NCBI RefSeq assembly: GCF_009931435.1
Contig: NZ_CP043414.1
DNA from: Escherichia coli
GTDB lineage: Bacteria > Pseudomonadota > Gammaproteobacteria > Enterobacterales > Enterobacteriaceae
Reading direction: 5' to 3' (one strand)
Length of the DNA stretch: 64,000 bases
The notes beneath the pieces are model-generated. The model worked only from the letters and a program-made list of their open reading frames with translations. It was not told where the DNA came from and did not search any database. The first letter of the stretch is position 1; each line of letters opens with the position of its first letter. Below, one piece after another: positions 2,888-12,423 of the stretch. The position numbers were made by a program, and so were the translations under genes.

Positions 2888-3059
2888 CAGCTTTTCCTTA
2901 GATTGAGGGTGAATAAAAAAGCCGGTACCCACAAACGTGGATACCGGCAGGTAAAGGGTTACAGTGCCGGAGGTCCGGCTGTGGGAGTTTCTGAATTGTG
3001 GTTCTGTTGTTCCCTGAATGTCTTTCTGTACGTATCTGTGCATGTTACTGACAAAGGTT

Positions 3060-3120
3060 ATTATTAGCTTATCGATCGATATAAACGATCGATAAAATAG
3101 ATATCGATCGTTTTATTCTA
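3060..3120 (-). promoter_or_regulatory. flu (agn43) phase-variation control region with three clustered GATC (Dam) sites
   Basis: GATC at 3074-3077, 3087-3090 and 3106-3109 within an AT-rich tract about 190-220 nt upstream of the flu start; matches the known Dam/OxyR switch architecture. Confidence 0.7.
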
Positions 3121-3214: not shown

Positions 3215-4087
3215 TCAGAAGAAAATCCAGTTCCATACCGCACGGGCAACAGAGACCACCGTGTCACGAACAGCGCGCAGGGCCGTACGGACAACAGAGG
3301 CAACACAGACGCTCTCCGCTGTGTCAAATATCCGGTCCACCGCACCGGTAAACTGTTCACGGGCCTGAGAGCGGACAGATTCCGTGCGCAGCTCGTCCTG
3401 CAGTCGGGTCATCAGGGGACTGGCGGCATGGTCGGGAAGCGCTGTCATGAGCGCACTGACCAGCGTATCCAGTTCCCAGCCGGTGCGGGCCGATACGGCC
3501 ACAACCGGATGTACGGGCCGGAACAGACGGAATACCGCCTCCGTTTTTTCGCGAATATTCTGTGCCTGTGCAGGAGAAGGCTGAATACCGGCCATATCCC
3601 ATTCATGGCAGGGCTCCGTTTTGTCGGCCTGCGTCACCACAAACAGTACCCGCTGATGTCCCCGGTGCAGGATGTGTCGCCAGAAATACTCATCCACAGA
3701 CAGGGCACGGTCATCGGCTTTAATCAGCCACAGTACCAGGTCAAGTTCAGGCAGAATGTCACGGTACAGGGCCTCATACTCTGCATCCCTGTCCCGGCTC
3801 TCGCCCACCCCGGGCAGGTCAGTGATAACCATGCTGTGACCGTGGCCACTCAGACGGAAGCGCCGTACTTCCCGGGTGCCGGCGTGAACATCACTGACCG
3901 GGGTGACCTCCCCCTGAAACAGTGCATTACAGAGTGAGGATTTACCGGCCCCGCTTTTACCCATAATGCCAATCACGGGTTCGTGACGGGTGAGTTTGCG
4001 CAGATGTTCCAGGATGTGACGGGAAAGCGAGTAAGGCAGGGAGGAGAGCGGTTTTTCAATTGCCTCAATGGCATCAGACGGATTCAT
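3215..4087 (-). CDS. yeeP: YeeP/YfjP-family prophage GTPase (50S ribosome-binding GTPase-like), apparently full length
   Basis: Translation from internal ATG at 4087 (MNPSDAIEAIEKPL...) with P-loop GIMGKSGAGKSS and DLPG motif; ORF-track start at 4126 is probably an N-terminal over-extension. Confidence 0.8.
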   Translation of the reverse strand: MNPSDAIEAIEKPLSSLPYSLSRHILEHLRKLTRHEPVIGIMGKSGAGKSSLCNALFQGEVTPVSDVHAGTREVRRFRLSGHGHSMVITDLPGVGESRDRDAEYEALYRDILPELDLVLWLIKADDRALSVDEYFWRHILHRGHQRVLFVVTQADKTEPCHEWDMAGIQPSPAQAQNIREKTEAVFRLFRPVHPVVAVSARTGWELDTLVSALMTALPDHAASPLMTRLQDELRTESVRSQAREQFTGAVDRIFDTAESVCVASVVRTALRAVRDTVVSVARAVWNWIFF

Positions 4088-5315
4088 ACATGTATTCCCG
4101 GTGAAAAAAGACAAAACCCCGCGCACCGGAAAGGTGGCGGGGGATTCACGGAGATAATATCTGTCTGAAATTGTTTTTAATCGATGGGATTGTTGCGTAT
4201 TAACATGAAGGAGATCAGGACTTATCCGTTACTGGGTGATCTCCTTCCATGAAAATACGCCGTTATTGTTAAACAGCAGGCTGATTTCTCCGTAAAGGGG
4301 AAAATATTTATCGGCTGCATGATTATCAGGTGTGTCTGTGTTTACTGCTGTGAGTATTTTTCAGTGTATTGTGGGGGAGATGTCAGTGGGAGATATTAAA
4401 TTTACATTTATAATTATCTTACTTCTTCTGTGTGTTTTTTATAAGAGTGCACACGTAATGATATCTGTTGATACCATGTGGTTAAGTGTTTCCCTTCCTG
4501 GTCATGCGTAATGATTAAATGCTTTTGTGACACCATTCTTCCGGTCTGAATATTTATCCCGTTCTTTTTTATTTGTGCAGTGATACTGTCGGAAGAGAAT
4601 TCAGTAATGTGAGGTGTCCTGGTCAGGATAATATCTGCTGAGATATTATTAGTTGAGTGTGTTTTTACTGAGCAAAAGCTGGCTTTTAATTCCTGTACTG
4701 AAACGCTGTTGCTCGTCCGGGGTTAACTGAAACTGGATGATGATGTAAAATGAAGGCTGTTTTTGTGTTTGTCGAAGAAGTGTTATTTTAATCCATTCTC
4801 ATCATTGGCTGGCGATTATACAGAAGTATTTGAAGAAAAAATGGTGCATTTTATCTGCGTCAGCAGGGAGGAAGTATTTTATTGATGTATCAGTATTAAA
4901 TGGTTTTTGTTATTTAGAAATATGTCATCCTGTCCATAGAATATTGTACTCAGCATTCAGTGCAGGAACTGTAGTCTTCTTTATTTTATTCTTCTTCAGG
5001 AGGGGGGATTCCTGAAGGCGTTATTCCCGGTGTTCTGTTTATGATTCATCCCGGCAGGAAACCGGTATCTGCAATACCCGGGATGATGCTTTTTGTTCGT
5101 ACGTGGTTGTGTAAAATTTGAATAGTGGATGTGCTCTGAAGGGAAGGAGGGGACACACAGATTCATTTTGTCTTTCTTCAGCAGCAAAACACACTGTGGT
5201 TATTATTTAACCATTAAATCAACAAAAATTTTTACCTCATATTGATTTGACTGCTATTTTTGCTATTAATAGCCAGAATTGCAGTACTTTTATATCTGTG
5301 TGTAGTGAGGTTACT

Positions 5316-6800
5316 ATGTCATTCGGTCAGCCTTGTGATGAGTTTCCCCTGAGTTCGCTGCCTCCACTCATTCGTGATGCCGTTATTGAAGCTCAGCAAA
5401 TTACGCAGGCTCCCCTTGGGCTTGTGGCAGCGTCTGCCCTGGGCGCTGTTTCACTTGTCTGCCAGAATCTGATTGATGTCTGCAGACTGAATACACTGCG
5501 GGGGCCGGTCTCTCTTTTTTTCCTGACGCTTGCCGAGTCCGGAGAACGAAAAATCGCAGTGGACAAATTATTAATGAAGCCCCTGTATCAGCAGGAGATG
5601 CAGTTATATTCCAGATACAAAAGTGAACTGGCTGTCTGGAAAAACAAGGAAGAGCTTTTAAAGGCTCAGAAAAAAGCATTGTTGTCAAAACTGAATAAAG
5701 AACTCCGCAAAGGAGCGGATGAGTCAGAAACCCTCAGACAACTGGAAGTACTTCAGAAAAACAGTGCGGAAGAACCTGTGAGGTATAAATTCATTTTTAA
5801 TGATGCCACGACTGCGGCAATTAAGAATCAGCTTTGTGGTAAATGGCGTTCAGTGGGTATTATGTCAGATGAAGCCGGTATTATATTTGATGGATATACC
5901 CTGTCTGAGTTGCCATTTATTAACAAAATGTGGGATGGCTCTGTATTGTCTGTGGACAGAAAGAATGAACCCGAACAGATGATTGAAAATGCCAGAATGA
6001 CGTTATCCCTCATGGTGCAACCCGGTCTTTTTGACCGATATATGGAGCGAAAAGGTTCTGTTGCCAGGGACAGTGGTTTTCTTGCCCGTTGTCTTATCAG
6101 TAAACCTGCAACCACGCAGGGGAAACGCTTTATTAACGGAGCTGTGATTCCGGGAGGATCATTAACGGCATTTCATGAACGATTAATGGAACTGGCCAGA
6201 GGCAGTATTGAAAAATCCAGTGAGGATGAACGGTATTGTCTGCATTTTTCGCCTGAAGCGCAAAAAATATTTATTGAGCACTATAATGTTCTGGAGCAGG
6301 ATTTATCTCCCTCCGGTCCGTTAAGTGCGTTTCGGGGACATGTTTCAAAAAAAACAGAAAACATTGCAAGAATTGCAGCGTTATTTCAGTATTTCAGCTA
6401 TGGTGAAGGGAAAATCTCTGCCGATATCATGACGTCTGCTGTCGTAATAAGTTCGTGGTACACAGATGAATATAAAAAATTATTTGCGTTACCTGATGAA
6501 TCTGAACTGCAGCAGAAGGACGCCGAGGAGCTGTTCGACTGGCTCATTGAGGAGTGCCGCGGAGAATGCCCACCCCGTGTCAGGAAAAATTATATTCTCC
6601 AGTGTGGCCCGGGTCGGTTCAGAAACAGGAAAAAACTGAACGCATTGCTGAACATTCTTGAATCTCAGTTCAGGCTTTCTGTCGTGCCGGAAGGAAAAAC
6701 CATGTATGTTCTGCTTCCCCAGATAGCCAGTTTAAAGTTGTCTGATGTCTCTGGTATTTTTACCTCGGGTTATCACTACAATAAGCTGAGAGCGAAGTAA
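5316..6800 (+). CDS. Large island protein, tentatively DUF3987 / YfjI-like (prophage replication-associated protein of unknown function)
   Basis: 494 aa from ATG 5316 preceded by GTGAGG Shine-Dalgarno; motifs recalled from the DUF3987 family (MSDEAG, GSVLSVDRK, LMVQPG, GFLARCL); no P-loop visible; family assignment from memory only. Confidence 0.55.
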   Translation: MSFGQPCDEFPLSSLPPLIRDAVIEAQQITQAPLGLVAASALGAVSLVCQNLIDVCRLNTLRGPVSLFFLTLAESGERKIAVDKLLMKPLYQQEMQLYSRYKSELAVWKNKEELLKAQKKALLSKLNKELRKGADESETLRQLEVLQKNSAEEPVRYKFIFNDATTAAIKNQLCGKWRSVGIMSDEAGIIFDGYTLSELPFINKMWDGSVLSVDRKNEPEQMIENARMTLSLMVQPGLFDRYMERKGSVARDSGFLARCLISKPATTQGKRFINGAVIPGGSLTAFHERLMELARGSIEKSSEDERYCLHFSPEAQKIFIEHYNVLEQDLSPSGPLSAFRGHVSKKTENIARIAALFQYFSYGEGKISADIMTSAVVISSWYTDEYKKLFALPDESELQQKDAEELFDWLIEECRGECPPRVRKNYILQCGPGRFRNRKKLNALLNILESQFRLSVVPEGKTMYVLLPQIASLKLSDVSGIFTSGYHYNKLRAK

Positions 6801-6859
6801 CCGGTGAGCAGTTTTTCTCCATTATGCTTCAGACTTAGATGATTGATTATTATGGGGAT

Positions 6860-6899
6860 TTCATCACCGATATTCAGATGTATGAATATCGGTGATGAA
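6860..6899. repeat. Perfect inverted repeat (17 bp arms, 6 nt loop) between convergent genes; possible bidirectional terminator or protein-binding palindrome
   Basis: ttcatcaccgatattca / gatgta / tgaatatcggtgatgaa read directly; no U-tract on either side. Confidence 0.5.
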
Positions 6900-7121
6900 C
6901 TAAAGCTCAGGAGTTGCGTGGTGGTGATGAATCAACAGGCATATAACTGATACCCGCCGGTCAGAAGTTCCAGCCTGCGACTTTCCTGTCTGCGTGCCCG
7001 CAGTCCGGCGTTCAGGTGCAGCGTGTGACAGAACGCACGGAGAGCGAAACGGCAGGCAGACAGGCTGTTCAGTCAGCCCTGGCACCCTGCCCGGATACCA
7101 GCTTCCCTGAAACAACTGGCA

Positions 7122-7730
7122 TCAGGTGCGCTTATCGTCAACCGTTGTGCGGTATGCCAGGAGCACGTACTGATCCATCAGATCCGTCAGTGCTGCGCTC
7201 TGCTTCTGACGGTTGATGATCCATTCCTCCAGCTCTTTTTCTGATTTCCGTTTCAGATTCTCCGTCCAGTCGTCAAGGCAGTTTCCGGTCATTAAATCAA
7301 GCCAGCAAAGCCAGACCAGTTTGAGGCGCAACTCCGTGCCACCAAACTGACGGAAGAGGCTGATCAGTTTATTTGCCAGCGAACGCTGCCTCAGACGTTC
7401 ACATTCAGACAGGAGAATGCCTTCCAGCATCGGATGATGAACCAGCAGATGTTCACTGGTGCATAAATTCACTATCAGATCATCATCCAGGGGCGGCGTG
7501 GTCCGTTTGTCCGGACCATAAATCAGCCGGTGCAGACTCTGGGGTACGATGGCAATCTCCGGTTTTTCACCATTGAATGACACCCACCCGGGCGTCAGAT
7601 TATGGAAGTAGTAGATATTCGGATGACACACGCCCCAGGATACGGCGTGCCGGGTGAAGCCGGTCAGCCATTTCTGGTAGCTTTCGTGGAGCAGCTCGTA
7701 ACGGGTCTGATACTGTGGTTTCATTTTCAT
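7122..7730 (-). CDS. Hypothetical protein (202 aa) downstream of alpA on the same strand
   Basis: ORF 7122..7871; internal ATG at 7730 (MKMKPQYQ...) has a GAGGAA Shine-Dalgarno 6 nt upstream; no family recognised. Confidence 0.5.
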   Translation of the reverse strand: MKMKPQYQTRYELLHESYQKWLTGFTRHAVSWGVCHPNIYYFHNLTPGWVSFNGEKPEIAIVPQSLHRLIYGPDKRTTPPLDDDLIVNLCTSEHLLVHHPMLEGILLSECERLRQRSLANKLISLFRQFGGTELRLKLVWLCWLDLMTGNCLDDWTENLKRKSEKELEEWIINRQKQSAALTDLMDQYVLLAYRTTVDDKRT

Positions 7731-7810
7731 ATTCCTCACGGGAGATAACAGGCAGCAGAACGCCGCCGGCAGGCCGGAGACTGCGTCTGCTGCAGATGAA
7801 CGGTTAAGAA

Positions 7811-8017
7811 TTACGGACGGGACTGTGCAATACGCGCCTGCAGCCAGGCTTCCACTTCGCTTTTCAGCCATCGGGAGCTGCGGCCCATTTTGATGGGCGC
7901 AGGAAAGTCACCATCCTTGATGAGTTTGTAAAACCACTTATCGGTCAGGCCGGTCAGTTGAGTGATAAATGCCATGTCGACCATCTGGTCATCCATCAGT
8001 GAAACTGGGGTGATCAT
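7811..8017 (-). CDS. alpA: AlpA-family prophage transcriptional regulator (MerR-like HTH)
   Basis: MITPVSLMDDQMVDMAFITQLTGLTDKWFYKLIKDG...RWLKSEVEAWL pattern typical of the AlpA family; ATG 8017 preceded by GAGGAA. Confidence 0.75.
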   Translation of the reverse strand: MITPVSLMDDQMVDMAFITQLTGLTDKWFYKLIKDGDFPAPIKMGRSSRWLKSEVEAWLQARIAQSRP

Positions 8018-8563
8018 GAGAATGTTCCTCCGGATGTTGTTAAACCAGCCGGTGTGGTCATGAAAACAACGCACCACCTTCACCGGCATAACAACCGGGG
8101 AGAAACGTAAAAAATAATCGGGAATGTGACCGCCAGGAGATAAACGGGGAGGTTACGGTGGCTGAGCCGTACCGGTATGCCGGGTGGTTGTTACGAAACG
8201 ATGCTTCCGCACGCGCGCGCGATAAAGAAGGGATGATTTTCGTGAGGAAGAGGGGAAAACTGGCGTTCTGATAATTGCAGAGTTATTTACGGGGCGGTTA
8301 CGATGGGGCAGACCGTGTCCGGTGGGCAGGCGACAGGTATCACCGATGGGATAAGACTGTCTGATTGGTATTATAAATATATAAGAGAGATCAAACACAT
8401 GAGATCAAATACATGAGTTCATATATGTGAAATAAACACGGTGAGTGTGATCAGTGGGCATGATGAGAACGCAGTAGCAACAGACTGCGCTATCCCTGAT
8501 AGCTGGCGTATAACCTGCGTATATAAAACGTACCAGCAACGCACGTGAACAGAGTGCATTAAG

Positions 8564-8579
8564 CATCCGTCGTTGACAC
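8564..8579. repeat. 16 nt identical to the IS100 right terminal repeat (catccgtcgttgacac); solo IS21-family end remnant
   Basis: Exact match to 25513-25528 plus flanking c of the IS100 copy in this window. Confidence 0.5.
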
Positions 8580-9329
8580 CGACCTGGTGAGTGACAGTCT
8601 GAGAGACCGGTTAAGTGGTGGTACGGGAGTAATGAGTTTGGGGTGGGTACCAGAATGCCAGTCTGGCGGTATGCTGACAGTATCACGTTAATTGCAGCAT
8701 AAAGTGATGAGAGGCTAATGGAAGTTAAAACCAGAGCAGTTCCGTCGTTGTTCATCCCGGGAGACGCTGGAAAAAGTGATTTCCCACACGCGTTATAAGC
8801 TTACTCCAGCGGAGATGGAAGCCTTCAACTCTGCGGTCGATCACCGACTGGCAGAACTGACAATGAACAAGCTTTACGATCGTGTTCCCGCTTCAGTCTG
8901 GAAATATGTCATCTGAGCGTTCGGTAATCACAACTGCATCGCGCCAGGTGTTATCCGCTTTGTGATTCTTATTGGCTCTTCTCAGGTTATTAAAAGCTGA
9001 ATATGTTCCTGTTGTCGGGAACCAGGATAATACCGGGAGCGTTAAGCGGTATAGCGACAACAAAGAATTCGAAATCAAAAGGGAATGGTGCCGGAGGCGT
9101 GGGCGGTAATAGGCTGATTTTCAGGTATTACCGGCTTACAACGTGTGGTTGATATTGAGGGGCTGTGAGTTTCGCGTATTTGTCAGAAACCCAGATGAGT
9201 TTTCCTGTATGGGACGAAATAAGGCAGCGGCAATACCTGGAAAATTTAATATGGTATGAAGGAGAACCTGTCGGTTACGCTTAATATACACGGTACACTG
9301 TCAGCTCAGGGGATACATGAACCGTTATC

Positions 9330-9539
9330 TCACCAGCTACACAGTATACACACACTGACGCTGACAGTAGTCAGCAGGACCACAATAATCAGCGCCAGCA
9401 GTATGGTAACGATACGGTCTGTATTCCGGTAGTAGCCGAAGGGGTCGACAGAACCACAATACGGGCAACACACTGTATTATTAGTAATCGCGTTTCCACA
9501 GTCCCTGCACTTCTTTTGCGTATCACCATAACTCCCTCC
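9330..9539 (-). pseudogene. Small zinc-ribbon plus transmembrane-helix protein, apparently frameshifted
   Basis: ATG at 9529 with strong GAGGAGGGAG Shine-Dalgarno opens a 46-codon frame; the -1 frame encodes CRDCGNAITNNTVCCPYCGS followed by a hydrophobic helix (IVTILLALIIVVLLTTVSVSV) but lacks a start codon. Confidence 0.4.
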
Positions 9540-9727
9540 TCACAGCCTTACCCGTAACCGGTTTTTTACATTAAAAAACAACGCTGAAAATTCAACCGTC
9601 AGTCCGGAGACGACCGTTCGGGTTATCACAGAGTGCCTGAGACAGTGTCCTGCCGGAGGTCACTTCAGGGACTCTGCGCATTTTTTACGACGTGGCTATT
9701 CCGTATGAACCATACGGAGATTTAACC

Positions 9728-10297
9728 ATGACCTACAAATACAACCCCTTCTGGCAGCAACGTATTCGTGAGACGGTGCGGCACGCACTGAATGTTCATC
9801 CCCGCCTGACGGCATTGCGGGTTGACCTGCGTCTCCCGGATGTACCGGCAGCAACGGACGCAGCTGTGATATCCCGCTTCATCAATGCCCTGAAAGCCCG
9901 AATCGACGCTTACCAGAAACGTAAGCATCGGGAAGGTAAACGCGTGCATCCCACCACCCTGCATTACGTCTGGGCCCGGGAGTTTGGGGAGTTCAAAGGT
10001 AAAAAACACTATCACCTGATGCTGCTGGTCAACCGGGATACCTGGTGTCGTGCCGGTGATTACCGCGCTCCGGAGTCTCTGGCCGGGATGATTAAACAGG
10101 CGTGGTGCAGTGCCCTGGGAGTGGATGTCGGGTGCCATGCCACGCTGGTGCATTTTCCGGCCTGGCCGGCGGTGTGGCTGGCGCGTAATGATGACACCGG
10201 CTTTCAGCAGGTGCTGGAACGTGCTAACTATCTGGCGAAGGAGCATACCAAAGCTCACTGCACCGGTGAGCGCAACTTTGGCTGCAGTCGTGGCTGA
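9728..10297 (+). CDS. HUH-type rolling-circle Rep-like protein (YagK/YfjJ / inovirus gp2-like family)
   Basis: HUH motif KKHYHLML and YxxK motif (NYLAKE) near the C-terminus; ATG 9728 with GGAG Shine-Dalgarno embedded in an 8 bp palindrome (9700-9718). Confidence 0.65.
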   Translation: MTYKYNPFWQQRIRETVRHALNVHPRLTALRVDLRLPDVPAATDAAVISRFINALKARIDAYQKRKHREGKRVHPTTLHYVWAREFGEFKGKKHYHLMLLVNRDTWCRAGDYRAPESLAGMIKQAWCSALGVDVGCHATLVHFPAWPAVWLARNDDTGFQQVLERANYLAKEHTKAHCTGERNFGCSRG

Positions 10298-10462: not shown

Positions 10463-10855
10463 ATGTACGCAAAATCCTTTCTCGCTCTTGATGGCAACGG
10501 ACGTCTGACGGGCGCCCGTACAGCACAGGCCGCACCTTATGCTCACTACACCTGCCACTTGTGTGGCAGTGCACTCAGATACCATCCGCAATACGACACT
10601 GAACTTCCCTGGTTTGAACACACTGACGACAGGCTGACAGAGCACGGTCAACAGTGCCCTTATGTCAGGCCGGAGCGCAGAGAAATACAGTTGATTAAAC
10701 GTCTGCAGCAATTCGTACCGGATGCCTTACCCGTGGTGCGTAAAGCCAGCTGGCACTGCAGACAATGTCACCACGATTATTATGGGGAGCGGTACTGCAC
10801 ACACTGCCAGACCGGAGGTTTCAGTCTTCCCCGGACAGCTCAGCAACTGTCTTGA
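10463..10855 (+). CDS. Uncharacterised zinc-ribbon protein (paralog 1), CxxC pairs and PWFEH motif
   Basis: 130 aa; CHLC ... PWFEH ... CRQC-x10-CTHC; AAGGAA Shine-Dalgarno upstream; paralogous to 12019..12423. Confidence 0.6.
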   Translation: MYAKSFLALDGNGRLTGARTAQAAPYAHYTCHLCGSALRYHPQYDTELPWFEHTDDRLTEHGQQCPYVRPERREIQLIKRLQQFVPDALPVVRKASWHCRQCHHDYYGERYCTHCQTGGFSLPRTAQQLS

Positions 10856-10864
10856 ACGTAAAAA

Positions 10865-11833
<969 letters not shown>

Positions 11834-12018: not shown

Positions 12019-12423
12019 ATGCGAATTCTGAACTGCTATATGGCGAATGACAGCAAAGGCCATTTTGTTACGGCGAAAGAAGCCGCGAAGAACAACCGAC
12101 AGGACGTTTTGTGCTGTGTGTCCTGTGGTTGTCCGTTAACACTTAAGCGGGGCAATGACGGACAACCGCCGTGGTTTGAACATGACCAGATGACTGTTGC
12201 TGCGAAAATCCTGCTGCGATGCACCTGGCTTGACCCGGCAGAGAAAGAGGCCCGTCGTTTGCATCTGCAGGGCATGACGGTTCCGGATTATACGGTGAAG
12301 GTGAGAAAGTGGTTTTGTGTGATGTGTGACGAAGATTATGAGGGGGAAAAGTGCTGCCCGCGTTGTGGTACCGGGGTATACAGCAGGGATAGGGGGGCTG
12401 CAGGAGGGCAACTGGAAGGATAG
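12019..12423 (+). CDS. Uncharacterised zinc-ribbon protein (paralog 2)
   Basis: 134 aa; CCVSCGC ... PPWFEH ... CVMC-x9-CCPRC; strong AGGAGGA Shine-Dalgarno; same architecture as 10463..10855. Confidence 0.6.
   Translation: MRILNCYMANDSKGHFVTAKEAAKNNRQDVLCCVSCGCPLTLKRGNDGQPPWFEHDQMTVAAKILLRCTWLDPAEKEARRLHLQGMTVPDYTVKVRKWFCVMCDEDYEGEKCCPRCGTGVYSRDRGAAGGQLEG

Follow-up and report, generated by a model that had tools for sequence, protein, structure and literature searches.

The module studied here lies at 5316-8017 of a 64,000-nucleotide stretch of the Escherichia coli contig NZ_CP043414.1 (assembly GCF_009931435.1; hereafter the window), where a yfjI gene converges on alpA and an orphan gene of about 200 codons that we call FAM. 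We find that FAM belongs with alpA to the conserved backbone of an island family of the Enterobacterales, whereas yfjI is facultative and fills a variable slot between FAM and a YeeP-type GTPase gene. What the module represents is the ordinary, degenerate end of an island, a mosaic in which two units differ in status. We hold these anatomical and evolutionary parts of the account with high confidence; taken whole, together with the roles proposed below for FAM and for the junction, it is the best explanation of the module and probable, if only just.

The backbone assignment comes from the neighbourhood of FAM in other genomes. One genome per species was scanned, which yielded 40 FAM loci in about 20 genera, all of them Enterobacterales except for two probably mis-binned contigs of metagenome-assembled genomes. 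Thirty-eight loci had enough upstream DNA to judge linkage, and in 37 of these AlpA is encoded upstream of FAM on the same strand, immediately so in 35 and with one zinc-ribbon gene between them in the other two. Every locus inspected has FAM within a CP4-type island, not far from an AlpA gene, and in nine further locus types FAM likewise comes after AlpA or stands in its vicinity. At 38 of the 40 loci a Gp2-like (HUH Rep-like) gene belongs to the co-oriented block, next to AlpA on its upstream side or next to FAM on its downstream side, and a GTPase gene with an unannotated gene of ~305 amino acids (aa) usually stands divergently upstream of the block.

The gene order of the block in other genera is (Rep)-AlpA-FAM-(Rep)-(Zn-ribbon), with variable cargo after it: BREX in Klebsiella, Dnd with a DndFGH-like cluster in Yersinia ruckeri and Pantoea, a type I restriction-modification (R-M) system with an HNH gene at one locus (L011), and VgrG with effector-like genes or an LlaJI/McrBC-like system elsewhere. 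One Salmonella locus (L009) has no cargo after the block. Sequence conservation ends at the FAM stop codon. The first-pass annotation had seen FAM as sitting where cargo or regulators occur, and a cargo position is not what the comparison gives: because FAM is constant next to AlpA (37 of 38 loci) and the cargo varies after it, FAM is part of the backbone and the cargo slot begins past it.

Among complete E. coli genomes, alpA-FAM is present in 3,494 of 5,426 (64%), with a median of two copies per genome. The small gene upstream of FAM had been read as a member of the AlpA family, correctly so: its product matches Phage_AlpA (PF05930, E=1e-8), HTH_17 (PF12728, E=9e-7) and PHROG 66, 'excisionase and transcriptional regulator' (E=8e-10), and shows 72% identity to AlpA from a Klebsiella island and ~24% to K-12 AlpA. 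Relative to the GTPase and Gp2/zinc-ribbon flanks, the E. coli alpA-FAM segment (7106-8400) is inverted with respect to Salmonella and Klebsiella islands (L003, L009, L026); flanking inverted repeats that might have caused the inversion were sought and none were found. Some 370 nt upstream of alpA, in the divergent region between alpA and an Hha-like gene, a 14-nt unit, GAGATCAAA(C/T)ACAT, occurs in 2.5 tandem copies (8387-8421) with a GATC (Dam) site in each full copy, possibly regulatory or iteron-like.

FAM is a real, conserved gene. The minus-strand open reading frame (ORF) at 7122-7730 is present as first described, with 202 aa from 7730, and the suspicion that it might be spurious falls away with homologues in many genera and dN/dS values of 0.12-0.37. 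RefSeq starts the gene at 7724 (200 aa); the start at 7730 is probably two codons early, since 7724 fits both the N-terminus of the family (MK..) and a conserved AAGGAA box ~9 nt upstream. About 200 homologues of the same length share 56-66% identity, in genera that include Salmonella, Klebsiella, Yersinia, Hafnia, Serratia, Pantoea and Cronobacter. The pairwise dN/dS values lie near those of the AlpA and GTPase neighbours. They stay far under 1 in comparisons between genera and also among E. coli alleles, where dS reaches 0.46, and by this measure FAM is under purifying selection. More than 1,000 genomes carry FAM, alpA and yfjI as intact ORFs.

The description of FAM as a protein with no recognisable motif is confirmed by every search. 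Pfam is empty even at E<=10, FAM with ten distant members has zero profile matches in Pfam, NCBIfam, PHROGs and PADLOC, and the PADLOC defence models give no match to FAM at E<=0.01. An exhaustive hidden Markov model search of 1.84 billion protein representatives returned 125 matches, mostly fragments, and a second, word-indexed profile search returned 263, all named hypothetical and none with a Pfam domain; neither of these large searches yielded a remote annotated relative. The family profile finds only noise among PDB sequences (E=0.8), the predicted model has no structural neighbour in the PDB, and Foldseek of that model against AFDB50 recovers only the family itself, under the misnomers 'malate transporter', 'secretoglobin' and 'Aec62'. 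The last of these names appears in the literature as a gene-table entry only (PMC6174562). The sole match among 50,697 phage records (OR851001) is an unverified low-coverage contig of 3.6 kb and was disregarded. As judged from these searches, FAM is a narrow, order-restricted protein family without sequence or fold relatives.

An AlphaFold2 model of FAM from a diverse alignment (pLDDT 87.9, pTM 0.86) shows a long helix at the N-terminus, a beta-hairpin and a bundle of six helices at the C-terminus, so that the protein is predicted to be mostly alpha-helical. Positions P62, G103, L105, S107, E108, R111, L112, L140, C141, W142 and Y187 are kept family-wide, and residues 99-146 are near-invariant in the group with 56-66% identity. 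The near-neutral isoelectric point (pI 5.6-9.1) and the negative grand average of hydropathy suggest a soluble, cytoplasmic protein.

At every locus examined, the spacer between alpA and FAM (86 nt in the window, 86-110 nt across loci) has a stem-loop, placed ~35-45 nt ahead of the start codon of FAM. In the window it was located by folding and by a terminator-like scan match. In most loci it takes the form ..TCCGG-loop-CCGGAGGTTTTCTGCTGCC.., and the U-run pairs with A-rich sequence on the 5' side. Pairing in the inner stem reaches 91% over 25 loci, and the closing pair of that stem covaries (GC in 13, CG in eight, AU in one and UA in one), to an extent reached by none of 500 shuffles. RNAalifold recovers only this inner stem of 4-5 bp, and the outer stems shift register between subfamilies. 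The hairpin and the ribosome-binding site are conserved between genera. The hairpin suggests that transcription from the alpA promoter reaches FAM by passing a weak terminator or attenuator.

The unit that faces alpA-FAM has a different standing. Three other E. coli islands (L019, L020 and L021) are homologous to the window through the GTPase gene as far as ~4172-4185, and again from 7106-7138, immediately beyond the stop codon of FAM. The intervening slot comprises a 1.1-kb, AT-rich and ORF-free leader, yfjI, a palindrome and a gene relic, together with a G+C-rich tail; G+C content is 39-45% across the slot, compared with 54% over FAM and alpA. Other E. coli islands have unrelated hypothetical genes (290-383 aa) or insertion sequence (IS) elements at this place, and the content found in the window occurs in 1,921 of the 5,426 complete E. 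coli genomes. No DUF3987 gene lies within 7 kb of FAM at any of the 40 other-species loci. Of the replication and regulation backbone first proposed for this type of island, made up of AlpA, DUF3987 and Rep-like proteins, the AlpA and Rep-like parts stand, with the AlpA profile match and the Gp2-family gene occurring together in the window; the DUF3987 part is not borne out. The gap between the GTPase gene and yfjI (4088-5315; 1.2 kb, ~39% G+C) carries no annotation and is conserved along with yfjI, and a search of the AT-rich leader for remnants of the ~305-aa neighbour or of YfjH found none. One genome with an apparently empty slot (H63, locus L017 of E. coli WP2-S18-ESBL-08) is uninformative, since the slot was lost in a deletion into the GTPase gene: at L017 9001-9190 the 3' flank of FAM (window 6951) is fused to a 5'-truncated GTPase gene, and yfjI and the palindrome are gone.

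FAM alleles are themselves exchanged between conserved flanks. In the sister allele of E. coli Ecol_743 (L022), AlpA is 93% and YfjI 90% identical to the window proteins, and the middle gene encodes a 190-aa paralogue with 37% identity to FAM, in which Cys109 of FAM is replaced by Leu. The diverged block starts at window ~6725, taking in the final ~25 codons of yfjI, and extends to ~7752 in the spacer between alpA and FAM (L022 7142-7937). Downstream of FAM the window retains the relic of a gene of this second type. Its translation, ARRQESRRLELLTGGYQLYAC followed by a stop, aligns with the C-terminal ARKREKRELELMIDEYLLYAC of the L022 paralogue, likewise followed by a stop (57% over 21 aa by tblastn), and the DNA is 73% identical over 105 nt, which points to an ancestral tandem pair or to allele replacement. 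Two intact FAM paralogues (191 aa and 174 aa) stand in tandem after AlpA at L011 (7273-8525), followed by the HNH gene and the type I R-M system. The L022 swap, the relic and the L011 pair point to a history of duplication, replacement and partial deletion of FAM alleles, set between flanks that are conserved. As read from these alignments, what is exchanged behaves as a cassette made up of FAM, the hairpin at the junction and the final ~25 codons of yfjI.

The hairpin at the junction is the perfect palindrome first described between the convergent units, and its 17-nt arms are indeed 100% complementary. None of 100 dinucleotide-preserving shuffles of the window contains a matching palindrome. 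As RNA it folds at -28.1 kcal/mol (z=-6.8) on the plus strand and at -25.4 kcal/mol (z=-7.7) on the minus strand. It does not have the form of an intrinsic (Rho-independent) terminator, as the stem has only 6 G+C of 17 and no T-run follows it. A dispersed repeat of the repetitive extragenic palindromic or miniature inverted-repeat transposable element kind is ruled out, because in all 1,175 genomes that have the palindrome it lies at the yfjI/FAM junction. The sister allele L022 lacks it and has a different hairpin of 9 bp at the equivalent place. The palindrome probably works at the RNA level, as a 3'-end or insulator hairpin that lies between the two converging units and is inherited with the cassette.

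The identity of the slot occupant is as first read. The 494-aa plus-strand ORF has the same coordinates in RefSeq, where it is named 'YfjI family protein', and it matches DUF3987 (PF13148) at E=5.8e-94 over its full length (residues 31-391 on model positions 1-363 of 364) and PHROG 2373, 'DNA helicase', at E=4e-81, with 53% identity to K-12 YfjI. It had been noted to lack a P-loop, which is right for the canonical motif GxxxxGK[ST]. A family-conserved variant, AESGERKI, is found at the expected place after a hydrophobic strand (residues 74-81, window 5535-5558); its last residue is Ile here, Ser in K-12 YfjI and Thr in the L022 allele, and a Walker-B-like GIMSDEAG follows. From their position, AESGERK-[S/T] and GIMSDEAG may be true NTPase motifs. 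DUF3987 proteins have been classed as superfamily 6 (SF6), MCM-related helicases (PMC4889955, PMC11724360), 5'-3' helicase activity has been demonstrated for one member, AgaPH (PMC11724360), and an archaeo-eukaryotic primase (AEP) or a DnaG primase is fused to these helicases or encoded immediately upstream (PMC4889955). By analogy with these published family members, the YfjI of the window would be an SF6-type helicase. The interval 4088-5315 contains no ORF of more than 63 aa, and no primase is annotated in the island. The gene opposes an otherwise co-directional leftward gene array. An imperfect palindrome at 5250-5285 (21-nt arms, 86% complementary, ACTGCTATTTTTGCTATTAATAGCCAGAATTGCAGT) ends 30 nt before the yfjI start and is a candidate operator.

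These observations lead us to propose that alpA-FAM would act as a conserved two-gene backbone operon of the island family, in which FAM would be transcribed with alpA through the weak terminator-like hairpin of the 86-nt spacer. Its product, probably acting through the near-invariant helix region at residues 99-146, would be a partner-binding accessory in excision or in rolling-circle replication by the Gp2-like Rep. The junction palindrome would form a stable hairpin in both convergent transcripts and serve as a 3' end or insulator, not as a canonical intrinsic terminator. That FAM is an accessory factor in island activation or replication is a tentative suggestion, plausible but short of probable.

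Several observations weigh against this reading. No homology of FAM bears on its function, and its near-neutral pI gives no support to DNA binding. In the L022 allele AlpA and FAM do not co-vary, with 93% identity for the one and 37% for the other, and this speaks against a close partnership of the two that is specific to each allele. Since the alpA-FAM segment is inverted in E. coli, operon context seen in other genera may not transfer to the window. Folding z-scores of the whole spacer are modest (-0.9 to -3.7), and the spacer hairpin could equally be a DNA operator. The junction palindrome has no U-run beside it on either strand and was not listed by the terminator scan, so termination is not supported by the consensus scan; the palindrome could also be a protein-binding site or a plain recombination scar. 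The ATPase of YfjI may be impaired in the window allele, to judge by the Ile in its Walker-A-like motif. Finally, tblastn with K-12 IntA finds no IntA-like integrase in the 64-kb window, and the module may therefore be non-functional here.

Other explanations of FAM have to be considered alongside this one. The protein might be retained as an effector and not for mobility, serving in anti-phage defence, anti-defence or abortive infection, or as the toxin of an addiction pair with the helix-turn-helix (HTH) protein AlpA. FAM does stand at the head of defence cargo in several genera, in islands that also carry anti-restriction (ArdB/KlcA), RadC and CbtA/CbeA modules; the allele swap (37% identity inside flanks of 90-93%) and the tandem paralogues of L011 resemble specificity or arms-race genes, and a small HTH gene followed by a gene of ~200 aa is a common toxin-antitoxin layout. 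We nevertheless consider an effector unlikely, given that FAM matches no PADLOC model, stays constant while the cargo varies and is kept even where cargo is missing, as in Salmonella L009. Each FAM allele lineage evolves under purifying selection at a rate like that of the neighbouring GTPase, and a spacer of 86-110 nt with a terminator-like hairpin is unlike the tight coupling of type II toxin-antitoxin genes. The Leu in place of Cys109 in L022 also makes a Cys-based catalytic centre unlikely. It is less probable again that what is seen is island debris in decay, without a present function in this strain, the palindrome being a scar and FAM being conserved only through recent acquisition. Intact ORFs of FAM, alpA and yfjI in so many genomes, the low dN/dS of FAM in E. 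coli and between genera, and the maintenance of the spacer hairpin and ribosome-binding site between genera all speak against decay, although the window has no integrase, remnants of IS110, ISL3, IS30 and IS4 fill the integrase-proximal end, a gene relic and a deletion variant joining FAM to a truncated GTPase gene are found, and the Walker-A Ser/Thr is Ile in this yfjI allele.

The convergent genes could also form a functional pair, in which FAM serves the YfjI helicase as a modulator or loader and both share the palindrome as a cis site, either an origin or a protein-binding site. We give this little credence. Two diverged E. coli versions of yfjI facing a FAM paralogue and alpA exist, in ~1,175 and ~740 genomes, the swapped cassette takes the C-terminal tail of YfjI along with FAM, and yfjI of CP4-57 directly follows alpA, a place held by FAM here. 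Against such a partnership stand the lack of DUF3987 within 7 kb of FAM at all 40 other-species loci and the existence of other E. coli islands that have FAM without yfjI (3,494 genomes with FAM compared with 1,921 with this yfjI). The palindrome, moreover, is absent from the sister allele, and the joint replacement of the YfjI tail is more simply read as the position of a recombination breakpoint.

Among the closest known systems, CP4-57 of K-12 (intA-yfjH-alpA-yfjI-yfjJ) shares with the window an AlpA-family HTH protein, YfjI (53%), a Gp2/YfjJ-like protein (36%) and a YfjP/YeeP-type GTPase (50%); its control genes and GTPase gene have cargo (AbpAB, RnlAB) between them, and an anti-restriction/RadC/CbtA-type module lies at the far end. 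In CP4-57, alpA, yfjI and yfjJ are adjacent and co-oriented and intA is present, whereas in the window yfjI is convergent within the slot and there is no integrase. The Gp2-like gene of the window lies on the other side and the other strand, the two AlpA proteins are only ~24% identical, and DNA comparison finds no FAM homologue in CP4-57, whereas FAM follows alpA here. With K-12 CP4-44, whose layout we take to be cobU-yeeX (yeeP, isrC, flu, yeeR-W), the window shares the place beside cobUST as well as agn43/flu, isrC and the YeeP-type GTPase gene. The K-12 copy has presumably lost its alpA side to IS elements, and compared with this assumed layout the window keeps alpA-FAM, yfjI and the Hha, Gp2 and zinc-ribbon genes.

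The likeness to phage-inducible chromosomal islands (PICIs) suggested in the first-pass annotation did not hold up. PICIs and P4-like satellites share an AlpA-family regulator with the window, and some also have DUF3987-type replication proteins, but the window has no int-alpA-pri/rep array and no packaging or capsid-redirection genes, none being annotated or detected at 1-20 kb; the sole phage-record match of FAM is unverified. The SF6 helicases of the DUF3987 family (AgaPH, PMC11724360; phage, PMC4889955) resemble the window YfjI in the full-length PF13148 match and in having P-loop-like and DE motifs at the expected places, and differ from it in that YfjI has no adjacent or fused AEP or DnaG primase, no PriCT domain and a non-canonical Walker A. 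A class of defence-island-carrying, tRNA-integrating mobile genetic elements (MGEs) is portrayed as combining an integrase, an AlpA-like excisionase, an HUH Rep, a RadC/ArdB/CbtA module and Dnd or BREX cargo (PMC12458937, bioRxiv 2025). As portrayed there, these elements match the FAM-bearing loci of Klebsiella, Yersinia and Pantoea, and section 11 of that paper, on defence-island MGEs, makes no mention of a FAM-like gene. Set against the same portrayal, which has a tRNA-adjacent integrase and direct repeats of 16-20 nt at the flanks, the window copy is degenerate, in that no such integrase was found.

The surroundings of the module bear out its first assignment to a CP4-type island, both by annotation and by the extended gene order of a genome with an identical core. 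Positions 1-20 kb are 100% identical to E. coli ZH48, whose RefSeq annotation supplies the gene names. From left to right these are agn43, isrC/IS102 RNA, a YeeP-type GTPase, YfjI, a hypothetical protein (FAM), an HTH protein (alpA), an Hha-like protein, an inovirus-Gp2-family protein and two zinc-ribbon genes split by an IS110 pseudogene, followed by ISL3, IS30 and IS4 debris and then by cobUST, ldtA and tRNA-Asn. The zinc-ribbon genes (10463-10855 and 12019-12423) are paralogues with 32% identity that are adjacent in other islands; here an IS110-family pseudogene with an internal stop (10865-11833) parts them. NCBIfam matches of the GTPase all fall far under the curated cut-offs, and homologues of the Gp2-like protein at other loci carry PF23343/PF11726. 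An Rfam scan of 4000-10000 at E<=1 gave no match.

The genome with the identical core (L001) extends leftwards into DUF905, DUF932, antirestriction, JAB/RadC-like, YeeT and YeeU/CbtA genes, so that the RadC/ArdB anti-restriction and CbtA/CbeA module lies left of the window, at the end opposite the integrase. The integrase-proximal end consists of IS debris, and IS remnants form the border between the element and a truncated cobalamin gene; two related loci have an integrase 4.6-6.4 kb downstream. The window is thus the cobU-proximal, regulatory and replication end of a degenerate CP4-44-type E. coli island beside cobUST. On the K-12 map this position is, we assume, that of the cryptic prophage CP4-44. 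Past 20 kb the spacing of the window departs from that of strain ZH48, and 20000-64000 holds three further tRNA-Asn genes, a tRNA-Ser gene and segments of low G+C content, such as 27-28 kb (35%) and 50-51 kb (37%).

Features of the module and its flanks, in window coordinates.
Feature	Position	Strand	Description
isrC/IS102 RNA	2908-3111		Rfam match, 253 bits
YeeP/YfjP-type GTPase	3215..4087	-	conserved left flank of the slot; 50% identity to K-12 YfjP
Variable slot of the E. coli island family	4186..7105		AT-rich leader, yfjI, palindrome and gene relic
yfjI	5316..6800	+	YfjI-family DUF3987 protein, 494 aa; putative SF6-type replicative helicase
Perfect palindrome	6860..6899		arms 6860-6876 and 6883-6899, 17 nt each, 6-nt loop; 59 nt past the yfjI stop
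Paralogue relic	6935..6997	-	last 21 codons and stop codon of a 190-aa-type FAM paralogue
FAM	7122..7724	-	orphan, 200 aa; 'Aec62' in UniProt; WP_000804452; AlpA-linked backbone gene
Two-tier stem-loop	7752..7793	-	in the spacer between alpA and FAM; resembles a terminator or attenuator; CCUGUUAUCUCC and the ribosome-binding site of FAM come next
alpA	7811..8017	-	AlpA-family HTH protein, 68 aa; excisionase or transcriptional-activator type
Inovirus-Gp2/YfjJ-like gene	9728..10297	+	putative HUH Rep (RefSeq name); 36% identity to K-12 YfjJ

For this window the message is modest: a gene taken earlier as a cargo candidate is to be reclassified as backbone. CP4-type islands are among the commonest mobile elements of E. 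coli, and elsewhere they carry BREX, Dnd, R-M and type VI secretion cargo. FAM, as a backbone gene without a family, fold or literature, is a candidate for a missing piece in the excision, replication or movement of these islands, and it is a practical marker for where the cargo slot begins. A bolder and rather improbable reading is that this Enterobacterales-restricted family has a new fold and provides the specificity or sensor subunit of island induction, coupling AlpA to the Gp2-like Rep upon a signal from a helper phage or from the host. If true, this would explain why FAM alleles are swapped between near-identical AlpA and YfjI flanks, and it would also explain the occasional tandem copies of FAM and its place ahead of BREX, Dnd and R-M cargo.

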